This document shows positions 4,522 to 50,049 of a DNA stretch of 52,523 bases, one piece after another. Origin of the DNA: a virus (Duplodnaviria; Heunggongvirae; Uroviricota; Caudoviricetes); the IMG/VR virus record IMGVR_UViG_2537561965_000009. The stretch is one strand, 5' to 3'. Under the pieces are notes generated by a model, which saw only the letters and a program-made list of their open reading frames with translations, was not told where the DNA came from and made no database searches. Made by a program: the position numbers and the translations under genes. The stretch's first letter is position 1, and every line of letters starts with the position of its first letter.

Positions 4522-4579
4522 AATTCACTTTAAAAAGGGCGGCAGAGCAGTCACGGAGTAAAACTGATACCGCCAAACG
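4522..4579 (-). ncRNA. dicF: DicF small regulatory RNA
   Basis: Minus-strand sequence UUUCUGGUGACGUUUGGCGGUAUCAGUUUUACUCCGUGACUGCUCUGCCGCCC followed by a U-run matches the DicF sRNA as I recall it; located between ydfC-like and dicB-like genes as in Qin. Confidence 0.6.
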
Positions 4580-4927
4580 TCACCAGAAAATTGATAACAG
4601 AGGGCGTTGCAGCGGAGTTGTCACTTAAGCGTATGGTCAACCTGACAACCCGGTGTCCTCAACGGAGGAAGGAATAACCCCGCCATACTTACCGCCGCGC
4701 CATTTCGCGGAGTGCCACAACCGGAAGCGCACGGTCGAACTAAATTTAACGACACCGTACAGAGAGACCAATTTCGCCGTGCGCTTTCGCTTTATGCCCT
4801 GACTTTTCAGGGACATATCCTTTCAGTAAACTGTCAGTGCCGGATGTTCACCCGTGTCCGGCGCACGCACTCCACCTGACCCGTGGAGAACTCCTTAATT
4901 ACCAACCTTAGCTTCGTTGGTTAGCTA

Positions 4928-12790: not shown

Positions 12791-12935
12791 ATACAGCGAA
12801 CGCCATTGGTTTAGTTGGATATTTACTGTGCCGGACAAAAACGGTTTGCGGGGAAATCTTAGTTAAGTAGAATGACTGCGGGTGCTTGAGGCTATCTGTC
12901 TCAGGCATGAACACCAAAAGGCAGATAGAGAAAAG

Positions 12936-13000
12936 CCCCAGTTAACATTACGCGTCCTGCAAGACGCTTAACATTAATCTGAGGCCATATCTATGCTCTA
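12936..13000 (-). ncRNA. sok: candidate Sok antisense RNA
   Basis: Minus-strand promoter-like TTGCCT (rc of 13031-13036) and TAACCT (rc of 13007-13012) with 17-bp spacer, positioned like the sok promoter of hok/sok loci; extent is an estimate. Confidence 0.35.
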
Positions 13001-13205
13001 CACACGTAGGTTAGCCTCTTACGTGCCGAAAGGCAAGGAGAAGCAGGCTATGAAGCAGCAAAAGGCGATGCTAATCGCCCTGATCGTCATCTGTTTAACC
13101 GTCATAGTGACGGCACTGGTAACGAGGAAAGACCTCTGCGAGGTACGAATCCGAACCGGCCAGACGGAGGTCGCTGTCTTCACAGCTTACGAACCTGAGG
13201 AGTAA
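12993..13205 (+). CDS. mok: mok-like leader reading frame of the hok locus
   Basis: ORF starting upstream of hok and running to the same stop (here in frame with hok); the 5' leader matches the conserved hok mRNA pattern GCTTGAGGC...AGCCTCTTAC...AAGGAGAAG. Confidence 0.4.
   Translation: MLYTRRLASYVPKGKEKQAMKQQKAMLIALIVICLTVIVTALVTRKDLCEVRIRTGQTEVAVFTAYEPEE
13050..13205 (+). CDS. hok: Hok/Gef-family type I toxin
   Basis: 51-aa product MKQQKAMLIALIVICLTVIVTALVTRKDLCEVRIRTGQTEVAVFTAYEPEE has the Hok signature; AGGAG SD at 13036-13040. Confidence 0.85.
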   Translation: MKQQKAMLIALIVICLTVIVTALVTRKDLCEVRIRTGQTEVAVFTAYEPEE

Positions 13206-13645: not shown

Positions 13646-14704
13646 GTGCGGGTATTACTTCGATCTGTTCCGGTACCGGAACTTGGGCTGGTGGTCCTTA
13701 AGCCTGGTCGTGAATCCATGCAGGTATTCCGCAGCGGTCGTGTACTGGTGGAGCCGGAACCGAAAAGCATGCGCGGTCTGCCGTCCGGAGTCGTTCCTGC
13801 CGTTCGCCAGCCATTGGCGGAGGATAAATCACTACTGCCATTTTTCAGCGATGAGCGGGTGATTCGTGCTGCTGGCGGTGCTGGTGCGCTGTCTGACTGG
13901 CTGTTACGCCACGTTAAATCCTGCCAGTGGCCTCATGGTGACTATCATCACAGTGAAATCGTCATACATCGTTACGGTACCGGCGCGATGGTGTTGTGCT
14001 GGCACTGCGACAACCAGCTGCGTGACCAGACCTCCGAATCACTCGGGCAACTTGCTCATCAAAACCTGTCAGCATGGATGATTGACGTCATACGCCATGC
14101 AGTGAATGGCACGCAGGAGCGGGAATTATCGCTGGCTGAATTGTGCTGCTGGGCTTCTGTAAATGATGTAGTGGATGCCATGACCGAAAATATGGCGCGT
14201 CGAATCCTGAAGCTTCCGGGTGAAAAAATCCGCTCAGTATACCGCGAGAGCGACATCGTACCGGGAGAGCAGACCGCCATCAGCATACTGAAGCAGCGCA
14301 CAAAAAATATTGCGCCGTTGCCTCACGCCCACCAGCAACAGAATCCACCACAGGAAAAGACGGTGGTCAGCATTGCCGTTGATCCGGAGTCACCGGCTCA
14401 GTATCTCCAGCGCCAGAAACCACAACGGGAAGAGATGCCTGTATACACGCGCTGGGTAAAAACGCAGAAATGCATGACGTGTGGCAATCAGGCAGATGAT
14501 CCGCATCACATCATTGGTCATGGACTGGGAGGGATGGGAACAAAGGCTGATGATTTGTTTGTTATTCCGCTGTGCCGTAAATGCCATAGCGAACTACACG
14601 CCGGGGTAAAAGATTTTGAAGAAAAACACGGCAGCCAGCTGTTGTTGCTGATTCGTTTTTTAATGCACGCGAGAAATTCGGGTGTCCTGAAGTGGAAAGC
14701 ATGA
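13646..14704 (+). CDS. DUF968-like (YdfU-type) phage protein with C-terminal HNH-like Cys/His motif
   Basis: 352-aa ORF; C-terminal CMTCGNQADDPHHIIGHGLGG...CRKCHSELH resembles an HNH/zinc-finger nuclease motif; directly upstream of rusA. Confidence 0.5.
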   Translation: MRVLLRSVPVPELGLVVLKPGRESMQVFRSGRVLVEPEPKSMRGLPSGVVPAVRQPLAEDKSLLPFFSDERVIRAAGGAGALSDWLLRHVKSCQWPHGDYHHSEIVIHRYGTGAMVLCWHCDNQLRDQTSESLGQLAHQNLSAWMIDVIRHAVNGTQERELSLAELCCWASVNDVVDAMTENMARRILKLPGEKIRSVYRESDIVPGEQTAISILKQRTKNIAPLPHAHQQQNPPQEKTVVSIAVDPESPAQYLQRQKPQREEMPVYTRWVKTQKCMTCGNQADDPHHIIGHGLGGMGTKADDLFVIPLCRKCHSELHAGVKDFEEKHGSQLLLLIRFLMHARNSGVLKWKA

Positions 14705-15070
14705 ATGACTGAACGCATAGAATTTGTTTTGCCTTACCCGCCAACGGTGAACACTTACTGGCGACGTCGTGGCAGCACATATTTTGTATCAAAAGCCGGT
14801 GAGCGTTATCGCCGTGATGTGGCGCTTATTGTTCGCCAGCAGCGGCTGAAATTAAACCTGTCCGGAAGGCTGGCGATAAAGATTATTGCAGAGCCACCGG
14901 ATAAACGTCGTCGTGACCTGGACAATATCCTGAAAGCACCACTGGATGCGCTGACGCATGCCGGACTTCTCATAGACGACGAGCAGTTTGATGAAATCAA
15001 TATTGTGCGCGGTCAGCGCGTTCCTGGGGGGCGGCTGGGCGTGAAGATTTACAAAATTGAGAGTGAGTGA
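14705..15070 (+). CDS. rusA: Holliday junction resolvase RusA
   Basis: 121-aa ORF MTERIEFVLPYPPTVNTYWRRRG... with the RusA signature; overlaps the upstream stop. Confidence 0.85.
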   Translation: MTERIEFVLPYPPTVNTYWRRRGSTYFVSKAGERYRRDVALIVRQQRLKLNLSGRLAIKIIAEPPDKRRRDLDNILKAPLDALTHAGLLIDDEQFDEINIVRGQRVPGGRLGVKIYKIESE

Positions 15071-15624
15071 TCGTAAATATGATATATCCGGAAATTACAG
15101 GCAAAAGCGGCGAGCATTTACGTCTAAAAACGCTGGAAGCCGTCTGGATCCAGGGGAAATTACGGATGTGGGGGCGTTGGTCGTACATAGGTGGTGGCAA
15201 ACCAGGAAATATGTTCAATCAGTTGCTGGCATCCAAAACACTTACAAAAACTGCGATCAATGAAGCTCTGCGCAGAATAAAAAAATCAGGGATTGATAAA
15301 ACTGAGCTGGAAGCGTTTTTGCGTGAGATGATCAACAGCAAGCAAAAGAGCGGGCTGGCTTATTGTACTGATGCCGAGGCGTTATGTATCGATCGGGTAA
15401 TTAGTAAAGTGTTGGCAGAGCATCCGGGATTGATTTGTATCCTCCGACAAAGATATGAAGGGCTGGGAATGAGCAAGCTGAAAATGGCAGAACAGTTAAA
15501 AAAGAATCACCCTGACTGGAGCCTGAAAACTTGTAGAAATCGCATTGATGTTTGGTTGGCGATGGCTGAAACCATGCTTTTCCTTCCAATGTGCGTGGCA
15601 CTTCGGTGCTTTTCTGATAACTGA
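15067..15624 (+). CDS. late-gene antiterminator Q-like protein
   Basis: 185-aa ORF (GTG 15067 or ATG 15079) directly after rusA and before the late/lysis region; contains an RMWGRWS motif reminiscent of Q-type antiterminators; the call is mainly positional. Confidence 0.5.
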   Translation: MIVNMIYPEITGKSGEHLRLKTLEAVWIQGKLRMWGRWSYIGGGKPGNMFNQLLASKTLTKTAINEALRRIKKSGIDKTELEAFLREMINSKQKSGLAYCTDAEALCIDRVISKVLAEHPGLICILRQRYEGLGMSKLKMAEQLKKNHPDWSLKTCRNRIDVWLAMAETMLFLPMCVALRCFSDN

Positions 15625-15713
15625 TGATAGAAGTGCATCAGCTATCAATCTTGTTGACGTTCATCAAGGTCTGGACAATACTTACGTTAAGTTCCAACAT
15701 ATGGAAGATAAGA

Positions 15714-16904
15714 ATGATATTTACACGATTGAGATTTATCAATTTGTACGCTTTTGAGGATGCAGAGCTTAACCTGTCCTATCCAAGGAAACCTGTAAAC
15801 ATGCCTCTTGATGGGGAGTTTTTGGCTGGACGGCCTAAATTTTACTATAAAAAAGTCTGTATCATAACGGGGGGAAATGCTTCAGGCAAGACGTCACTAG
15901 GGCGAATTCTTTGTGGAATTCAGGTGTTTCTAAGAACCAAAGAGTTGCGGAGTAATCTGCGAGTGAATAATAAAAATAATGATGCTTCGTTTGAAGTAGA
16001 CTTTGCTACGGAGGAACATTTTCATCATCGTTTGTATGTACGCTTTGCTACCAGTGAAGGCGGAGCGCACATAATCAAAGAAATTAAATATGGTTTTGTT
16101 CAAATAGCATTAAATGATTCTTGCTATAAAACCACAGAAAAACTGAATCAACTCTTTTCTGGAAGGGCCCCAGGAGATACAGAATATTTTTTTCAGGAAC
16201 TAGCTACTGATAGCGAACCAGTTGTATTGGAGTTTTTCAAGCAACTTAAGTTTTTTGGTGGATGGTACTATTTGTTGTCTGAAACTAAAGAAAGTACCAC
16301 TGCAATTTCAGGAATGAATAAAAATATTCTTGAAAGGATAATTCGCACTTTCGATTCAAGTATTATAGGAGTTACCGAGATGCTGGAGTCTGAAAGTGAC
16401 GGGGATGAAAATAAATCATCTGCGGTTTATCTGATTAAATTTAAAAACTCTGATTCTCTTGTCGTTACCAGTAAAGGTGAAATAATTAACTCAGACCGTC
16501 TTTCTCGAGGAACATACGAGGCAGTGACGGTAGCGCATTTTATAAGCGCTATTATCTCTGATTGTGAAAGACTAGGTAAGCAATCTCTAATACCATCAAT
16601 GACTTATTTTCTTGACGAGAAATTGGCTTATACACATTCAGAGTTAGAGCGTATGATTGTGGCGCTGATTATATCTAATTTGAAAGAAAATACTCAGTTT
16701 TTCTATACAACGCATAACATGGATATTTTTGAGTTGGATCTGCCTGTTCACTCGTTCATTTTTATTAAAAAAACGAAAGACTATTCGGAGTTTGTTGAAG
16801 CAAATTCAGTTGTTAAAAAAAATGACCGTAGCATGCGAAACGCTGTTGAGAGAGATGTCTTTGGTGTCTTACCTGACACATCATTAGTATCGGAGCTACT
16901 CTGA
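15714..16904 (+). CDS. ABC-type (AAA_21/SMC-like) ATPase, first gene of a candidate two-gene defence module
   Basis: 396 aa from ATG 15714; N-terminus MIFTRLRFINLYAFEDAELNL; Walker A ITGGNASGKTS; signature-like LSRGTYEAV; Walker B YFLDE; H-loop-like TTHN; strongly AT-rich codon usage unlike flanking phage genes; stop overlaps next start (TGATG). Confidence 0.7.
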   Translation: MIFTRLRFINLYAFEDAELNLSYPRKPVNMPLDGEFLAGRPKFYYKKVCIITGGNASGKTSLGRILCGIQVFLRTKELRSNLRVNNKNNDASFEVDFATEEHFHHRLYVRFATSEGGAHIIKEIKYGFVQIALNDSCYKTTEKLNQLFSGRAPGDTEYFFQELATDSEPVVLEFFKQLKFFGGWYYLLSETKESTTAISGMNKNILERIIRTFDSSIIGVTEMLESESDGDENKSSAVYLIKFKNSDSLVVTSKGEIINSDRLSRGTYEAVTVAHFISAIISDCERLGKQSLIPSMTYFLDEKLAYTHSELERMIVALIISNLKENTQFFYTTHNMDIFELDLPVHSFIFIKKTKDYSEFVEANSVVKKNDRSMRNAVERDVFGVLPDTSLVSELL

Positions 16905-17437
16905 TGGCGGGGTTGTCTAAAATAAGAATAATTTTTGTCGAAGGTGAAACAGAAAACTCTCTTTTTCAGAAGATGAAACAACAGAGAGTTATTGATGCCA
17001 AATCAATTGTAAAAAGAAACTTTTGGCAAGAGAGCATAAGAAATTATGCGATTACTATTCCGAAGGGAAGTGATATACTAATTGTCTTTGATAGTGATGA
17101 AGTGGAGCAATCTGCAAGATTCATTGAAAATGTAAAGTTCCTTAAAAACAGAGGGCATAAAGTTTATCTTTTGCAGCAGAAAAGAAATTTTGAGGAGGAG
17201 TTGGCCTGGTGTTGCGGAATTCCTGTAAAAAAACTAATTGCTGGGTTCTGTGCAAAAAAAACATCGGGTATAAATGATTTCAAGAGAGATTTTATTGCTT
17301 GTAACAATCAACTTTCAAAGTTACTGAAAATGGGCATGCAGGAAACTAAGTGGTTTACAAGAGATTTACATACTGTATTGGAGCCTGTTGCAAGTTTTAA
17401 GTCATCTTTTTCTAAACATTTCAGGTTAACAAGATGA
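16904..17437 (+). CDS. small TOPRIM-like protein (RloB/OLD/DUF4435-like), second gene of the candidate module
   Basis: 177-aa ORF; N-terminal IRIIFVEGETE and downstream ILIVFDSDEV give the Glu ... DxD arrangement of TOPRIM-type nuclease domains; translationally coupled to the ATPase gene. Confidence 0.6.
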   Translation: MAGLSKIRIIFVEGETENSLFQKMKQQRVIDAKSIVKRNFWQESIRNYAITIPKGSDILIVFDSDEVEQSARFIENVKFLKNRGHKVYLLQQKRNFEEELAWCCGIPVKKLIAGFCAKKTSGINDFKRDFIACNNQLSKLLKMGMQETKWFTRDLHTVLEPVASFKSSFSKHFRLTR

Positions 17438-17572
17438 TTTATTTTCTTTTTTGTTCAGTTGATTGTTTTTGTTTGTAAAATGTCTTGATTTTTTGCCAAT
17501 AAACTGTTTCAATCCAGCTACGCTTCGCAAAGCTATACCGCGAGGCGAATAGCAGACATGGACACCTGAAAG

Positions 17573-17597
17573 AACCCGCTTTATGCGGGTTTTTTTA
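17573..17597 (+). terminator. rho-independent terminator after the ATPase/TOPRIM operon
   Basis: AACCCGC-TTTAT-GCGGGTT hairpin followed by TTTTTT. Confidence 0.7.
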
Positions 17598-17719
17598 TGC
17601 CTGAAAAACGGCACAGAACATTAAACGCGCTGGTAGTTGTGAATACTGGTCTTTCAGCTTGCTGGCTTTTTCGACAAGAGGTATTGGTATGTCACGTTAA
17701 CCGGAAAAGGGAAAAAGGC

Positions 17720-17917
17720 ATGCTAAAACAGCAGGATATGACCGAAACCGCCAGAGTGGTGTTTAATGAATTAAGCGTCACCGAACCGGCGACCGTCGGG
17801 GAAATTGCGCAGAATACTTACCTTTCACGCGAACGCTGCCAGTTAATACTGACTCAGCTTGTTATGGCGGGTCTGGCAGATTATCAGTTCGGTTGTTACA
17901 GACGCCTTCCGCAGTGA
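17720..17917 (+). CDS. small hypothetical protein (possible HTH)
   Basis: 65-aa ORF MLKQQDMTETARVVFNELSVTEPATVGEIAQNTYLSRERCQLILTQLVMAGLADY... upstream of the methyltransferase. Confidence 0.4.
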   Translation: MLKQQDMTETARVVFNELSVTEPATVGEIAQNTYLSRERCQLILTQLVMAGLADYQFGCYRRLPQ

Positions 17918-18067
17918 AGGCTTTTTAATTTGTGGTAATGGGCGGCTGGTGGGTGTTAGCGGCACCTGCCAGCCATCTGCTCATGCGTTGGGGTCACAAG
18001 CAAACCTCAGGCCCATCTGCTTTGCGCAAAAGCGGTATGAGCCTATCAGAGAAGTGCTTATTGATCT

Positions 18068-19117
18068 ATGGCTAATACTGTAAAAATATCCAGTTGTGAG
18101 TTAATCAACGCTGATTGCCTGGAATTTATCCAGACCTTACCGGAAAACTCTGTCGATCTTATAGTCACAGACCCGCCATACTTTAAAGTGAAACCCGAGG
18201 GCTGGGATAACCAGTGGAAGGGCGACGATGATTACCTGAAGTGGCTGGACCAGTGTCTGGCGCAGTTCTGGCGGGTGCTGAAACCTGTCGGAAGTCTTTA
18301 CCTGTTCTGTGGTCATCGCCTGGCATCTGATATCGAAATCATGATGCGTGAACGCTTCAGTGTGCTGAACCATATTATCTGGGCGAAGCCGTCCGGACGC
18401 TGGAACGGATGCAACAAGGAAAGCCTGCGGGCGTATTTCCCCGCCACAGAGCGCATTCTGTTCGCGGAACATTATCAGGGGCCGTATCGTCCGAAAGATG
18501 CCGGGTATGCGGCGAAGGGCAGTGCACTGAAACAGCATGTGATGGCCCCGCTGATTTCTTACTTTCGTGATGCGCGCGCGGCCCTGGGGATAACGGCAAA
18601 ACAGATTGCAGATGCCACAGGAAAGAAAAACATGGTGTCGCACTGGTTCAGTGCCAGTCAGTGGCAGCTACCGAACGAAAGCGATTATCTGAAATTACAG
18701 TCGCTGTTTGCCCGGGTGGCAGAAGAGAAACATCAGCGCGGTGAACTGGAAAAGCCCCACCACCAGCTGGTGGATACGTATACGTCACTGAACCGGCAGT
18801 ATGTGGAGCTGCAGAGTGAATATAAGCATCTGCGGCGGTATTTTGGTGTGACGGCGCAGGTGCCGTACACGGATGTGTGGACACATAAACCGGTGCAGTT
18901 CTATCCCGGGAAACATCCGTGCGAAAAACCGGCAGAAATGCTGCAGCAGATAATCAGCGCAAGCAGTCGTCCGGGAGACCTGGTTGCAGATTTTTTTATG
19001 GGCTCAGGTTCAACGGTAAAAGCTGCACTGGCGCTCGGGCGTCGTGCGATTGGCGTTGAACTGGAGACCGGACGTTTTGAGCAGACAGTCAGGGAAGTTC
19101 AGGATTTAATCGTTTGA
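18068..19117 (+). CDS. DNA methyltransferase (N6-adenine/N4-cytosine, beta class), apparently orphan
   Basis: 349-aa ORF with motif IV DPPY near the N-terminus and motif I FFMGSGST near the C-terminus; no adjacent restriction endonuclease gene seen. Confidence 0.8.
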   Translation: MANTVKISSCELINADCLEFIQTLPENSVDLIVTDPPYFKVKPEGWDNQWKGDDDYLKWLDQCLAQFWRVLKPVGSLYLFCGHRLASDIEIMMRERFSVLNHIIWAKPSGRWNGCNKESLRAYFPATERILFAEHYQGPYRPKDAGYAAKGSALKQHVMAPLISYFRDARAALGITAKQIADATGKKNMVSHWFSASQWQLPNESDYLKLQSLFARVAEEKHQRGELEKPHHQLVDTYTSLNRQYVELQSEYKHLRRYFGVTAQVPYTDVWTHKPVQFYPGKHPCEKPAEMLQQIISASSRPGDLVADFFMGSGSTVKAALALGRRAIGVELETGRFEQTVREVQDLIV

Positions 19118-19166
19118 AACGGATGAGATTGCAGAATTAATTACGCACCATTATTATTCTGCTCCC

Positions 19167-19242
19167 GGCCCTTTAGCTCAGTGGTGAGAGCGAGCGACTC
19201 ATAATCGCCAGGTCGCTGGTTCAAATCCAGCAAGGGCCACCA
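19167..19242 (+). tRNA. ileZ: tRNA with CAU anticodon, ileX-like (tRNA-Ile2)
   Basis: 76-nt cloverleaf GGCCCTT...AAGGGCCACCA with anticodon loop CUCAUAA; closely resembles E. coli ileX as recalled; same position as ileZ in Stx-type phages. Confidence 0.8.
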
Positions 19243-19249
19243 TCACATA

Positions 19250-19326
19250 CCGCCATTAGCTCATCAGGAAAGAGCGCCAGCCTTCGAAGCTGGTTGCGCG
19301 GGGTTCAAGTCCCCGATGGCGGTCCA
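19250..19326 (+). tRNA. argN: tRNA-Arg (anticodon UCG)
   Basis: 77-nt cloverleaf with acceptor CCGCCAT/ATGGCGG, anticodon loop CUUCGAA, T-arm CGGGGTTCAAGTCCCCG and encoded CCA. Confidence 0.75.
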
Positions 19327-19339
19327 TTATCTGCATCAT

Positions 19340-19416
19340 GCGTTGTTAGCTCAGCCGGACAGAGCAATTGCCTTCTAAGCAATCGGTCACTGGTTCGAAT
19401 CCAGTACAACGCGCCA
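19340..19416 (+). tRNA. argO: tRNA-Arg (anticodon UCU)
   Basis: 77-nt cloverleaf GCGTTGT...ACAACGCGCCA with anticodon loop CUUCUAA. Confidence 0.8.
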
Positions 19417-19707
19417 CACTTATTTTCCCTGGCTCGCTTTTGTGGGCCTTTTTTTTAAATGTCTCACAATTTAGGCGGTTGACTGTTGTCTGGTTTGCGG
19501 GGAGTTTGTTAAAAGAAACTGGCATGGTGAATCCCCCTGTGCGGAGGGGCAATCAGCGAGTAGGTATATGGGATAATCGCGGATTCAGGTGCTGGTACTG
19601 AATTCACCGGGAGGCACCCGGCACCATGCAATGGCACATAGCGCCACTCTCCAGCCCCTCTCCGGAGGGGCTGTTTATATTGATTTTGTCAGATGTGAGT
19701 AAACTGC

Positions 19708-20043
19708 TTATGGACTTTGTTGTTTTAGCCCATAAGGACATATTTGCAGAGTGCAACGGTTATTAAAGCATTCATTCAATACGTTATCTGTATTTGTAGG
19801 GCATTCCTGGCTGTTTTTGATTAAATTCCAGAATGTTTTATTGAATGGTACTACGTTGTAAATGGTTACAGGTAGCACTTTGTTATTGAGCATGATGCCT
19901 GTGTGAGTCAGTGTAAATATACTTTCAGGAGGTAAGAAAGCATCCGATTGATACCAGATTATTAATTTTATTTTACTCCATATGACTGAAAAAGATATTC
20001 CGCATGATGGCTGGATAACTGTATCAATCACAATCCACTTCAT
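19708..20043 (-). CDS. orphan hypothetical protein at the stx-equivalent position
   Basis: 111-aa ORF in a very AT-rich segment between the tRNA genes and the esterase gene, opposite in orientation to the late operon; AAGGA-like SD; no family recognised. Confidence 0.35.
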
Positions 20044-46189: not shown

Positions 46190-49100
46190 ATGGCAGTAAA
46201 GATTTCAGGTGTACTGAAAGACGGCACAGGAAAACCGGTACAGAACTGCACAATCCAGCTGAAAGCAAAACGTAACAGCACCACGGTGGTGGTGAACACG
46301 CTGGCCTCAGAAAATCCGGATGAAGCCGGGCGTTACAGCATGGACGTTGAGTACGGTCAGTACAGCGTTATTCTGTTGGTGGAAGGATTCCCGCCGTCAC
46401 ATGCCGGGACCATCACCGTGTATGAAGATTCCCGACCCGGTACGCTGAATGATTTTCTCGGTGCCATGACGGAGGATGATGCCCGTCCTGAGGCACTGCG
46501 CCGTTTTGAACTGATGGTGGAAGAGGTGGCGCGTAACGCGTCCGCGGTGGCACAGAACACGGCAGCCGCGAAGAAGTCAGCCAGCGATGCCGGCACATCA
46601 GCCCGTGAGGCGGCAACCCATGCGACTGATGCTGCAGGCTCAGCACGCGCAGCCAGCACGTCAGCCGGACAGGCTGCTTCGTCGGCTCAGTCAGCGTCTT
46701 CCAGCGCAGGAACGGCATCAACAAAGGCCACTGAAGCATTAAAAAGTGCTGCCGCTGCAGAGTCCTCAAAAAGCGCGGCGGCTACCAGTGCCGGTGCGGC
46801 GAAAACGTCAGAAACGAATGCGGCAGCGTCACAACAATCAGCAGCCACTTCTGCATCCACCGCGACTACGAAAGCGTCAGAAGCAGCCACTTCAGCACGG
46901 GATGCGTCGGCTTCAAAAGAGGCGGCAAAATCATCAGAAACGAACGCAGCCTCGAGCGCCAGCAGCGCAGCTTCCTCGGCAACGGCGGCAGCAAATTCTG
47001 CGAAGGCGGCAAAAACGTCTGAGACAAACGCCAGGTCTTCTGAAACGGCAGCGGAACAGAGTGCCTCAGCTGCGGCAGGCTCAAAAACAGCGGCTGCGTC
47101 GTCTGCCAGTGCAGCGTCAACAAGTGCCGGGCAGGCCTCAGCCAGTGCCACCGCCGCCGGAAAATCGGCAGAAAGCGCCGCATCGTCTGCTTCAACAGCC
47201 ACAACGAAGGCTGGCGAAGCCACTGAACAGGCCAGCGCAGCAGCGAGGTCTGCTTCCGCAGCGAAGACATCCGAAACGAACGCGAAAGCGTCGGAAACCA
47301 GCGCAGAATCCTCAAAAACGGCTGCCGCATCGTCCGCCAGTTCGGCGGCGTCATCGGCATCATCTGCGTCTGCTTCAAAAGATGAGGCGACCAGACAAGC
47401 GTCAGCAGCGAAGAGCAGCGCCACGACGGCATCCACGAAGGCAACAGAGGCGGCAGGCAGTGCGACGGCAGCATCTCAGAGCAAAACTACTGCTGAATCC
47501 GCTGCGACCCGTGCGGAAGCTGCTGCTGATCGTGCTGAAGAGATTGCCGGTGCAGTTGCGATGGAAGACGCAAGCCTTACAACTAAAGGTGTTGTGAAAC
47601 TTAGCAGTGCTGTTGATAGCACCAGTGAATCGCTGGCCGCAACGCCAAAAGCAGTTAAAGCAGCCAATGACAATGCGAATAGCAGGGTGCCATCTAACCG
47701 AAAAGTTAACGGAAAAGCACTGACTGCGGATATAACATTAACGCCGAAAGATATTGGTACTTTAAATTCAGTAACGATGTCTTTCTCTGGCGGGGCTGGG
47801 TGGTTCAAACTGGCTACGGTTACCATGCCACAAGCGAGTTCCATCGTTTACATCGCATTGATTGGTGGCGCTGGTTACAACGTCGGTTCCCCACATCAGG
47901 CAGGCATTTCAGAACTGGTTCTACGAGCAGGCAATGGAAACCCCAAAGGAATTACCGGGGCTTTGTGGAAGCGTACAGCCGTCGGATTAACGAATTTCGC
48001 CTGGATCAACACATCCGGCGATACATATGATATTTACGTTGAGATTGGCAATTATGCGACGAGTGTAAATATCCATTGGGATTGTACTGCAAATGCGTCA
48101 GTTTCTGTTTATACCTCGCCAACATATTCAGCGAGTAAGCCTTCCAGCGTTACCTATGGTGTTGTTTATACGATGTATAGCTCACATCAGAAACCTACAC
48201 CATCAGATATTGGAGCACTGCCAACAACCGGAGGAACAGTTTCAGGTCCGTTGTCTGTTACAGGTGGATTAACTGGTTCATTGAATGGTAATGCAAGTAC
48301 AGCCACGAAATTGCAGACGGCAAGATCTATCGGTGGAGTTGTTTTCGACGGTTCTGCAAATATTAACCTTCCAGGTGTAAACACTACGGGTAATCAGAAC
48401 ACCACTGGTAATGCTGCAACTGCTACAAAACTTCAGACTGCAAGAAAAATATCCGGTGTTCCATTTGATGGTTCTACTGATATCACTTTAACCGCCGCGC
48501 ATGTGGCTGCTTTTGCCAGAAGGGCAACGGATACATATGCCGATGCGGATGGTGGCGTTCCCTGGAATGCCGAATCAGGCGCTTACAATGTCACCCGCTC
48601 TGGCTACACCTATATTCTGGTTAACTTCTATACCGGAGTCGGAAGTTGCCGGACCCTGCAGATGAAGGCGCATTACAGAAATGGAGGTCTGTTCTACCGT
48701 TCCTCAAGAGATGGCTATGGTTTTGAGGAAGGCTGGGCAGAAGTTTATACCTCGAAAAATCTTCCACCAGAAAGCTACCCAGTTGGCGCACCAATCCCGT
48801 GGCCATCAGATACCGTTCCGTCTGGTTATGCCCTGATGCAGGGGCAGACTTTTGACAAATCTGCTTACCCGAAACTTGCAGCGGCTTATCCGTCAGGCGT
48901 GATCCCTGATATGCGTGGCTGGACGATTAAGGGCAAGCCCGCCAGTGGTCGTGCCGTATTGTCTCAGGAACAGGATGGCATTAAATCGCATACCCACAGC
49001 GCCAGCGCATCCAGTACGGATTTGGGGACGAAAACCACATCGTCGTTTGATTACGGCACTAAATCCACGAATAACACCGGGGCGCATACCCATAGTATTA

Positions 49101-49468
49101 GCGGGACCGCAAATAGTGCCGGTGCGCACCAACACAAGAGTTCCGGTGCATTTGGTGGCACGAACACGAGCATTTTCCCTAATGGTTATACCGCGATTTC
49201 AAATCCAAGCGCGGGGATTATGAGCACAACAAGCGGTAGTGGCCAGACTCGTAATGCAGGGAAGACATCATCAGATGGTGCTCATACCCACTCGCTGTCC
49301 GGCACAGCAGCATCTGCAGGTGCACATGCACATACTGTCGGTATTGGTGCGCATACGCACTCGGTTGCGATTGGTTCACATGGACACACCATCACCGTTA
49401 ACGCTGCTGGTAACGCGGAAAACACCGTCAAAAACATCGCATTTAACTATATTGTGAGGCTTGCATAA
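46190..49468 (+). CDS. stf: side tail fibre protein Stf (long form with Ala/Ser-rich repeat array and His-rich distal tip)
   Basis: About 1092 aa from ATG 46190; N-terminus [26 protein letters not shown] (lambda Stf-like); long A/S/T-rich repeats containing KTSETNA units; C-terminal HxH-rich segment [20 protein letters not shown]...[18 protein letters not shown] typical of fibre tips. Confidence 0.85.
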
Positions 49469-50049
49469 TGGCATTCAGAATGAGTGAACAACCACGGACC
49501 ATAAAAATTTATAATCTGCTGTCCGGAACTAATGAATTTATTGGTGAAGGTGATGCATATATTCCGCCTCATACAGGTCTGCCAGCAAACAGTACCGACA
49601 TTGCACCGCCAGATATTCCAGCTGGCTTCGTGGCTGTTTTCAACAGTGATGAGTCATCGTGGCATCTCGTTGAAGATCATCGGGGTAAAACGGTTTATGA
49701 CGTGGCTTCCGGCGACGCGTTATTTATTTCTGAACTCGGCTCATTACCGGAAAATGTCACCTGGTTATCCCCGGAAGGGGAGTTTCAGAAGTGGAACGGC
49801 ACAGCCTGGGTGAAAGATGCAGAAGCAGAAAAACTATTCCGGATCCGGGAGGCGGAAGAAACAAAAAACAGCCTGATGCAGGCAGCGAATGAGCATATTG
49901 CGCCACTTCAGGATGCTGTAGATCTGGAGATCGCAACGGAGGAAGAAACTTCGTTGCTGGAAGTCTGGAAAAAGTATCGGGTGTTGCTGAACCGTGTTAA
50001 TACAACAACTGCTCCGGATATTGAATGGCCAGTAGCACCTATAGGGTAA
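49468..50049 (+). CDS. tfa: tail fibre assembly protein Tfa
   Basis: 193-aa ORF, ATG overlapping the stf stop. Confidence 0.85.

Follow-up and report, generated by a model that had tools for sequence, protein, structure and literature searches.

A stretch of 52,523 nucleotides from a tailed phage (Caudoviricetes; IMG/VR record IMGVR_UViG_2537561965_000009), referred to here as the window, is a complete lambdoid prophage of Escherichia coli that carries, directly after a Q-like antiterminator gene, a cassette of two genes encoding an ABC-type ATPase and a small TOPRIM-like protein. The cassette is probably a prophage-borne defence (abortive-infection) module of the AbiL or RloA-RloB kind, that is, a “split OLD”. 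An initial annotation, made from the letters of the sequence, had proposed a candidate defence operon at this position. That proposal is supported insofar as the ATPase and TOPRIM-like genes form a coupled, acquired pair in a cargo slot, but the novelty it claimed for the pair was overstated, as described below.

Gene 1 (15714-16904, plus strand, 396 amino acids [aa]) and gene 2 (16904-17437, plus strand, 177 aa) overlap by a single base, the stop codon of the first being joined to the start codon of the second (TGATG). This confirms the coupled arrangement initially annotated, and the same two genes are annotated in RefSeq at the same coordinates in Escherichia coli O166:H15 JNE21-009, as a 396-aa “ATPase AAA” and a 177-aa hypothetical protein; the JNE21-009 prophage is collinear with the window. 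Upstream of 15714, the frame of gene 1 stays open as far back as an ATG at 15624, which overlaps the Q-like stop codon, again as TGATG; this start yields the 426-aa form found in many database entries. Since homologues in other contexts start at the position equivalent to 15714, the 426-aa form is probably an over-extension or annotation artefact, while translational coupling of gene 1 to Q through the 15624 ATG is possible.

The two genes are also found together far beyond this prophage. A chromosomal scan of one genome per species yielded 78 loci in Gammaproteobacteria and Betaproteobacteria, Lachnospiraceae and other Firmicutes, Fusobacteria, Treponema and Campylobacterota. An intact partner gene was present in 60 of the 78, at a spacing of −13 to +44 nucleotides (nt) in 59 and of +144 nt in one; the other loci had fragmentary partners (six), lay at a contig edge (about six) or lacked a partner (about six). 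The partnerless ATPases are mostly from Succinivibrionaceae; those at five distant loci (Succinivibrionaceae, Aeromonadales and Bacillota) may be orphans or may work with a different effector. In three loci of gut Firmicutes (Lachnospiraceae/Roseburia), the partner is split into fragments of 66-74 aa by a frameshift or an assembly error. Among viral contigs in IMG/VR, the pair was found at 35 of 38 loci. It lies between the portal gene and gpA in Klebsiella P2-like prophages, which is the old/tin hotspot; it adjoins a Rac-like integrase in E. coli and the integrase of a prophage in Acinetobacter; and it sits between the portal and terminase genes of a gut Heliusvirales phage. Partners from these four contexts and from an Oligella urethralis island match the family profile with E-values of 8e-26 to 7e-47. 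The Oligella island (locus L006, 1-6706) has two further AAA_15-family ATPase genes upstream of the pair, each followed by a small unannotated open reading frame (ORF): one set of 427 aa (cut by the locus end) and 145 aa, and one of a 190-aa fragment and 166 aa, with an insertion sequence (IS) transposase between sets. The small-TOPRIM profile matches only the partner of the query pair in that island. The flanks of 17 sampled chromosomal loci contain type III restriction-modification (R-M) genes (three to four loci), Gabija (two loci) and DRT-like genes (two loci), which together amounts to roughly a third of the sample.

These data bear on whether the pair could instead be a toxin-antitoxin (TA) addiction module, in which a TOPRIM toxin and an ATPase antitoxin would stabilize the prophage or its cargo and provide no defence against other phages. 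Pairs of AAA ATPase antitoxins and TOPRIM_OLD toxins have been validated in NetFlax toxicity-neutralisation assays (PMC10440598), the two genes studied here are tightly coupled in translation, and the same prophage already has a hok/sok locus. Moreover, HEC-01, a related ATPase-TOPRIM candidate built in the same way, failed to protect E. coli in assays. However, TA activity and abortive infection are not exclusive, PARIS having been described both ways (PMC13064643), and the repeated placement of the pair in phage defence hotspots, together with the R-M, Gabija and DRT neighbours, fits defence better. The putative antitoxin gene is also the upstream one, and it is much larger than a classical antitoxin gene. 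An addiction module with no role in defence is therefore rather unlikely.

Gene 1 encodes an AbiLi-like ABC ATPase with a Rad50/SMC-type head. Its motifs occur in the expected set and in order: Walker A GGNASGKTS, a signature-like LSRGTY, Walker B YFLDE and an H-loop-like TTHN. All the motifs that had been read by eye in both genes are present and coincide with positions that do not vary in the family alignments, and in 61 relatives of gene 1 the invariant residues are N55, G58, K59 and T60, then R262, S264 and G266, then D301 and E302, and finally H334. The fold was classed as an ABC head, with Rad50/SMC heads as the best structural matches; a beta-rich insert occupies the place where a coiled coil would be, and there is no coiled coil. 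The best profile match is AbiLi (PADLOC PDLC02335, 4.3e-25, 86 bits), followed by mad3 (2.2e-11), the candidate family PDC-M12A and AriA (1e-7). AbiLi is likewise the best match for all 61 relatives (best 6e-32); mad3 was matched by 55 of them and AriA by 27. The protein scores below the Pfam gathering thresholds for AAA_15 (28.8 vs 32.1 bits), AAA_21 (19.2 vs 27 bits) and SMC_N, and a sequence search of PDB chains with the ATPase returned chance-level matches only. Many of its close relatives have precomputed PF13175 or PF13304 matches. The PHROG family matched by gene 1, phrog_5836, has 1071 profile positions, of which the 396-aa ATPase spans positions 4-410; this family may contain much longer or fused members.

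Gene 2 likely encodes a small TOPRIM domain protein of the RloB/AbiLii type, a predicted metal-dependent nuclease effector, as judged from profile matches that are weak but concordant, from conserved residues and from strand order. The motifs IRIIFVEGETE and ILIVFDSDEV are both present. At least 90% conservation across 141 representatives was observed for E13, G14, E17, N39, D63, D65, N76, Q92, N95, E97, E99, F126 and K127, which gives the pattern ExxxE, DxD, NxExE, K. In a structural model (predicted local distance difference test score, 89.8), E13 and E17 follow strand 1 (residues 8-12), D63-x-D65 ends strand 3 (residues 57-63), and NxExE comes after strand 4. A glutamate after strand 1, a DxD motif after strand 3 and an acidic cluster after strand 4 constitute the TOPRIM arrangement. 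An exhaustive profile search placed 626 clusters (at 50% identity) in this family at E ≤ 0.001, and 388 at 1e-10, from Proteobacteria, Firmicutes, Fusobacteria, spirochaetes and many phages; a word-indexed search for relatives gave only 25. The initial annotation had described gene 2 as unusually short. This is not the case, since nearly all of the best 150 family clusters are 160-190 aa long, and the corresponding profiles have 170 positions (PADLOC AbiLii) and 195 positions (Pfam RloB).

The profile evidence for gene 2 is mostly carried by its relatives. The protein itself scores weakly against AbiLii (1.7e-3, over a short stretch), RloB (0.012) and OLD-like_TOPRIM (0.048), and falls under the curated thresholds of the TOPRIM models tried (OLD-like_TOPRIM, RloB and Toprim; 14.6 vs 23.2 bits and 16.2 vs 31.5 bits). 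AbiLii was matched by 68 of the 141 relatives (best 5.9e-7), so that the relatives of both proteins bear out the AbiL neighbourhood suggested in the initial annotation. Only six Pfam families were matched by more than one of the 141, in each case below threshold: OLD-like_TOPRIM (10), OLD-like_TOPRIM_1 (4), RloB (4), DUF3226 (3), Toprim (2) and Toprim_2 (2). Further matches to defence profiles among the relatives were to HEC-01B, GajA, Old and ATPase-Toprim_I-B. When the gene 2 family was aligned to P2 Old with hhalign, the match fell on the TOPRIM region (residues 394-548), and both VEGxTE and DxD were in register (E-value 0.0019, probability 14%). A local hhalign comparison of one family alignment (A2) with a provisional alignment made up of Old, GajA, P0352 and a single OLD-like neighbour gave a 15-column EGxxE match that is uninformative, and use of the P2 Old TOPRIM region as the query for a reference profile returned five fragments, too few for the purpose. 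Sequence searches of PDB chains with two gene 2 profiles (A1 and A2) gave chance-level matches only.

Structural searches leave some room for a different reading, in which gene 2 would be a non-catalytic Rossmann-like adaptor or regulator, with the ATPase or an unlinked host factor as the effector, or in which the pair would act on plasmids or other mobile DNA and not on phages. A Foldseek search of the gene 2 model against the PDB found nothing at E ≤ 0.001, and fold searches mostly returned generic Rossmann-like proteins (CheY-like receivers, SIS domains), compatible with TOPRIM at most. Every TOPRIM profile match of gene 2 itself is sub-threshold, and about six distant ATPase relatives have no partner. 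Nevertheless, the near-invariant residues are exactly those acidic ones with which TOPRIM binds metal, and they follow beta1 and beta3; the sub-threshold matches of the 141 relatives concentrate on TOPRIM-clan models; and the alignment to P2 Old keeps both motifs in register. This alternative therefore appears quite improbable.

Additional evidence comes from the position of the cassette in the prophage. The prophage is integrated adjoining ompW and has a Rac-type immunity region (racR, ydaT) and lambda-like head and tail genes. The gene order is DUF968, RusA, the Q-like gene, the cassette, a small ORF, a DNA methyltransferase gene, three tRNA genes, IraM and the lysis genes, so that the immediate neighbours are the Q-like gene on one side and a 65-aa ORF followed by the methyltransferase gene on the other. 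The Q-like late antiterminator gene (15067-15624, plus strand) matches Pfam DUF1133 (2e-98) and Phage_antitermQ (1e-7), both above cut-off, as the initial annotation had supposed. In a blastn comparison with a cassette-free relative (E. coli 97-3250), homology was confined to 14001-15492 and 17477-19200. Because it stops at 15492 and resumes at 17477, the foreign mosaic segment is 15493-17476 (plus strand, 1,984 bp), which replaces 117 bp of cassette-free relatives and also covers the final ~130 nt of the Q-like gene, a variant 3′ end that starts at 15493. The AT-rich contrast that had been noted with the flanking genes was also confirmed. GC content is 0.33-0.41 across the cassette and about 0.46-0.57 on the flanks; the coding part has 0.361, compared with 0.51 for the whole window. 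On these grounds of composition, alignment and distribution among genomes, the cassette is horizontally acquired. The complete cassette occurs in 7 of 5426 complete E. coli genomes, and carriers include the enterotoxigenic E. coli strain B7A and an O166:H15 isolate. The B7A allele differs by four synonymous and five non-synonymous changes, too few for any conclusion. A search of GenBank phage records for near-identical DNA gave no match, and an Rfam scan of 15.4-17.8 kb found no RNA family, and hence no retron non-coding RNA or ToxI-like RNA.

The site after Q is variable among related prophages, being empty in some and occupied in others by a Ser/Thr kinase and PP2C phosphatase pair (E. coli 503440, locus L016, 2199-3703) or by a 237-aa hypothetical gene (E. 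coli 2013C-4282, locus L017, 2282-2995), both at the equivalent of window ~15625-17590. Both alternative cargoes are AT-rich (0.39-0.40 GC), and after each comes a separate hairpin, at the point from which the sequence is again homologous to the window. This pattern suggests, from comparison of the sequences, that the post-Q slot is a hotspot for cargo, located upstream of the late leader. The initial annotation had called it the classic moron site after Q; a cargo slot does lie directly after Q, but it is upstream of the leader and terminator, unlike the stx-type position. A housekeeping role in prophage replication, recombination or packaging, with an SbcC/Rad50-like ATPase and a nuclease as a DNA-processing pair, would agree with the Rad50/SMC structural matches, with the recombination-gene neighbours (RusA, DUF968/HNH-like) in the delayed-early operon and with the shared orientation of that operon, but is highly improbable, given that the cassette is dispensable (it is present in just 7 of the 631 E. 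coli genomes that have the ~120-base backbone piece on its 3′ side, 17477-17599), is foreign in composition, occurs in unrelated phage types and at non-phage chromosomal sites, has neither a coiled coil nor an Mre11/SbcD-type partner, and has ATPase relatives that all score best against the defence family AbiLi.

The transcription signals around the cassette belong in part to the phage backbone. An intrinsic terminator at 17573-17597 (plus strand) had been assigned to the operon. The hairpin is real (RNA fold −20.6 kcal/mol, z = −6.0 vs shuffles), but the terminator, which is included in the backbone piece, is found in all 631 genomes, 624 of which lack the cassette, and is therefore not a feature of the operon; it is probably a tR′-like element of the backbone. 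It was not picked up by a consensus scan, probably owing to a stem that can run on into the T-run; prophages with other Q alleles have a different hairpin in its place. It may also end transcripts of the cassette. The stretch before it (17477-17572, plus strand) is the backbone leader, which comes directly after Q in cassette-free prophages; the region is 98% identical over 244 bp to the cassette-free relative, where the leader stretch begins 11 nt before the Q stop codon. By analogy with the lambdoid layout Q-PR′-tR′, this leader is predicted to hold the late promoter and qut region; a promoter consensus scan found no site within 17477-17572. A candidate promoter for the cassette itself (TTGACG-17-AATACT, 15654-15682, plus strand) lies 32 nt upstream of gene 1 and has 9 of 12 consensus matches. 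Since the cassette is upstream, not downstream, of the leader and terminator, the late promoter probably does not drive it. Its transcription probably starts at a weak promoter of its own in the lysogen and, once the prophage is induced, comes from early-operon read-through. For the same reason, a late-operon moron like stx, whose position is downstream of the leader, was rejected.

PARIS (AriA/AriB), P2 Old and the NetFlax pairs of AAA antitoxin and TOPRIM toxin suggest, by analogy, a mechanism for the proposed defence module. An oligomer of the ATPase would hold the small nuclease inactive in the lysogen. Upon superinfection, the ATPase, by a process that depends on ATP binding or hydrolysis, would sense either an aberrant nucleic-acid structure or a product of the phage, and the nuclease would be released or activated to cut an essential nucleic acid. 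The likeliest target would be host tRNA, as for AriB and P2 Old, with DNA as the alternative, although the assignment of tRNA as the specific target is tentative and somewhat doubtful. Translation or replication would then halt before the cycle of the invader is completed.

Several observations weigh against a defence module of this kind. The trigger and the target, whether tRNA or DNA, are proposed purely by analogy. The cassette was likened to AbiL via the AbiLi and AbiLii profiles of PADLOC and not via the founding Lactococcus lactis proteins, and a tblastn search with the ATPase against 72,556 plasmids found one Acinetobacter plasmid and no lactococcal one. HEC-01, as described above, did not protect E. 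coli. Over half of the 17 sampled chromosomal loci have ordinary housekeeping neighbours. The cassette promoter is a consensus match only, and such sites are no commoner in the region than in shuffled sequence. Finally, no publication on these proteins turned up in a literature search by accession and PHROG number.

A more specific possibility, which we regard as unlikely, is that the clade is not just another AbiL but a distinct “minimal split-OLD” system with its own trigger and target. The effector would then be a TOPRIM protein of ~175 aa without the large helical or dimerisation regions of OLD and AriB, kept in check by a coiled-coil-free ATPase. A product of superinfecting phages of the lambdoid or P2-like kind could serve as the trigger, and the target could be a specific set of tRNAs that phage-borne tRNAs bypass. 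Such a system would have spread among unrelated phages via cargo slots, including a post-Q slot that is undescribed as a defence hotspot.

Several other features of the prophage were recorded. About 2 kb downstream of the cassette are three tRNA genes (Ile, Arg, Arg) and the STnc100 small RNA, at window positions 19167-19413 and 19493-19682; these belong to the backbone and are also present in cassette-free relatives. Because phage tRNAs can neutralise tRNA-cutting TOPRIM systems, a link between them and the cassette is conceivable. The gene for an N6/N4 DNA methyltransferase occupies 18068-19117, between the terminator and the tRNA genes; it has no restriction partner nearby and is kept in the backbone of many lambdoid prophages. 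The gene for the IraM anti-adaptor (19708-20043, minus strand) is AT-rich (about 0.31-0.38 GC) and represents another moron in the late leader, at the site that stx occupies in Shiga-toxin phages. The hok/sok type I TA locus is at 12880-13204 (sok RNA at 12880-13055, with hokD adjoining), and a DicF antisense RNA (4537-4588, minus strand) lies upstream of dicB. Beyond the tail-fibre gene, 47785-50009 contains a MerR-family regulator, a helix-turn-helix gene, a transposase-domain gene and a match to the IS009 RNA, and is probably cargo at the right end of the prophage or an adjacent element.

An active cassette would give the AbiL-type systems with an ATPase and a small TOPRIM protein their first representative that is both enterobacterial and genetically tractable. 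It would allow a test of whether the sequestration by an ATPase and the tRNA targeting described for PARIS and P2 Old extend to the smallest TOPRIM effectors, and because the family of small partners is large (626 clusters), one worked example would annotate many hypothetical genes. The variable cargo slot after Q also offers a place to look for prophage defence genes in pathogenic E. coli.

Known systems resemble the cassette to different degrees. Septu and retron-Septu were rejected in the absence of an HNH nuclease PtuB, MADS since no other MADS genes are adjacent, and Gabija since there is no adjacent UvrD-like GajB helicase and the genes are split. The RloA/RloB pairs of Campylobacter type I R-M loci, HEC-01 and mad3/mad4 are, like the cassette, two-gene pairs of an ATPase and a RloB- or TOPRIM-like protein. 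However, the cassette matches RloB, HEC-01 and mad3/mad4 below threshold or far more weakly than AbiLi (HEC-01A/B was matched by a few relatives, and mad4 by one of the 141 gene 2 relatives), and no type I R-M genes lie near it, unlike at the RloA/RloB loci. P2 Old, a class 1 OLD protein, and GajA share with the cassette an ABC ATPase together with a TOPRIM domain that has Glu and DxD, and the cassette family is found in the same P2 hotspot as old. P2 Old has been reported to be an abortive tRNase (bioRxiv 10.64898/2026.07.10.737580). OLD and GajA combine the two domains in a single polypeptide, but the cassette encodes them in separate genes, so a fused class 1 OLD was rejected; the likeness is at the level of profile and fold only.

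PARIS provides a precedent for the proposed mechanism. A hexamer of AriA holds AriB until a phage trigger frees AriB to cut tRNA-Lys (PMC11464382, PMC13064643). The initial annotation had mentioned PARIS-like systems, but neither gene 2 nor any of its 141 relatives matches DUF4435/AriB, and PARIS was rejected as the identity of the cassette. Gene 2 has about half the size of AriB (35 kDa), and the ATPase, which matches AriA weakly (1e-7), has its nearer relation in AbiLi.

AbiL was first described in Lactococcus (Deng et al. 1999, as cited in PMC11464382 and PMC13064643). AbiLi is a Rad50-like ABC ATPase and AbiLii an OLD/TOPRIM-like protein; AbiL has been grouped with PARIS and MADS3-4 as ABC ATPase and TOPRIM systems, and its mechanism is still unknown (PMC11464382, PMC13064643). 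The cassette shares with AbiL the two-gene operon with the ATPase first and a small nuclease-like partner second, and the partner profile is of the same size (170 positions). The two differ in host context, a lactococcal plasmid for AbiL and a lambdoid prophage of a Gram-negative host for the cassette, and in the length of the ATPase, which has 396 aa in the cassette compared with about 453 aa for AbiL in a published superposition (PMC13064643). The nearest published counterpart is found in the P2-hotspot catalogue of Rousset et al. (2022), in which entry 90 of supplementary file 6, “AAA_15/AAA_21/SMC_N | RloB”, is listed with 37 occurrences, untested and without a note. UniRef, too, labels the gene 2 protein a “RloB domain-containing protein”. 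Judged by sequence identity, the same gene pair is already listed as entry 90, and its novelty was to that extent overstated in the initial annotation. Entry 90 and the cassette are both E. coli prophage cargo composed of the same families end to end, with 40% identity between the ATPases (5e-103) and 38% between the partners (3e-38). The slots differ: entry 90 occupies the old/tin hotspot of P2 near cos, whereas the cassette described here occupies the site after Q in a lambdoid prophage.

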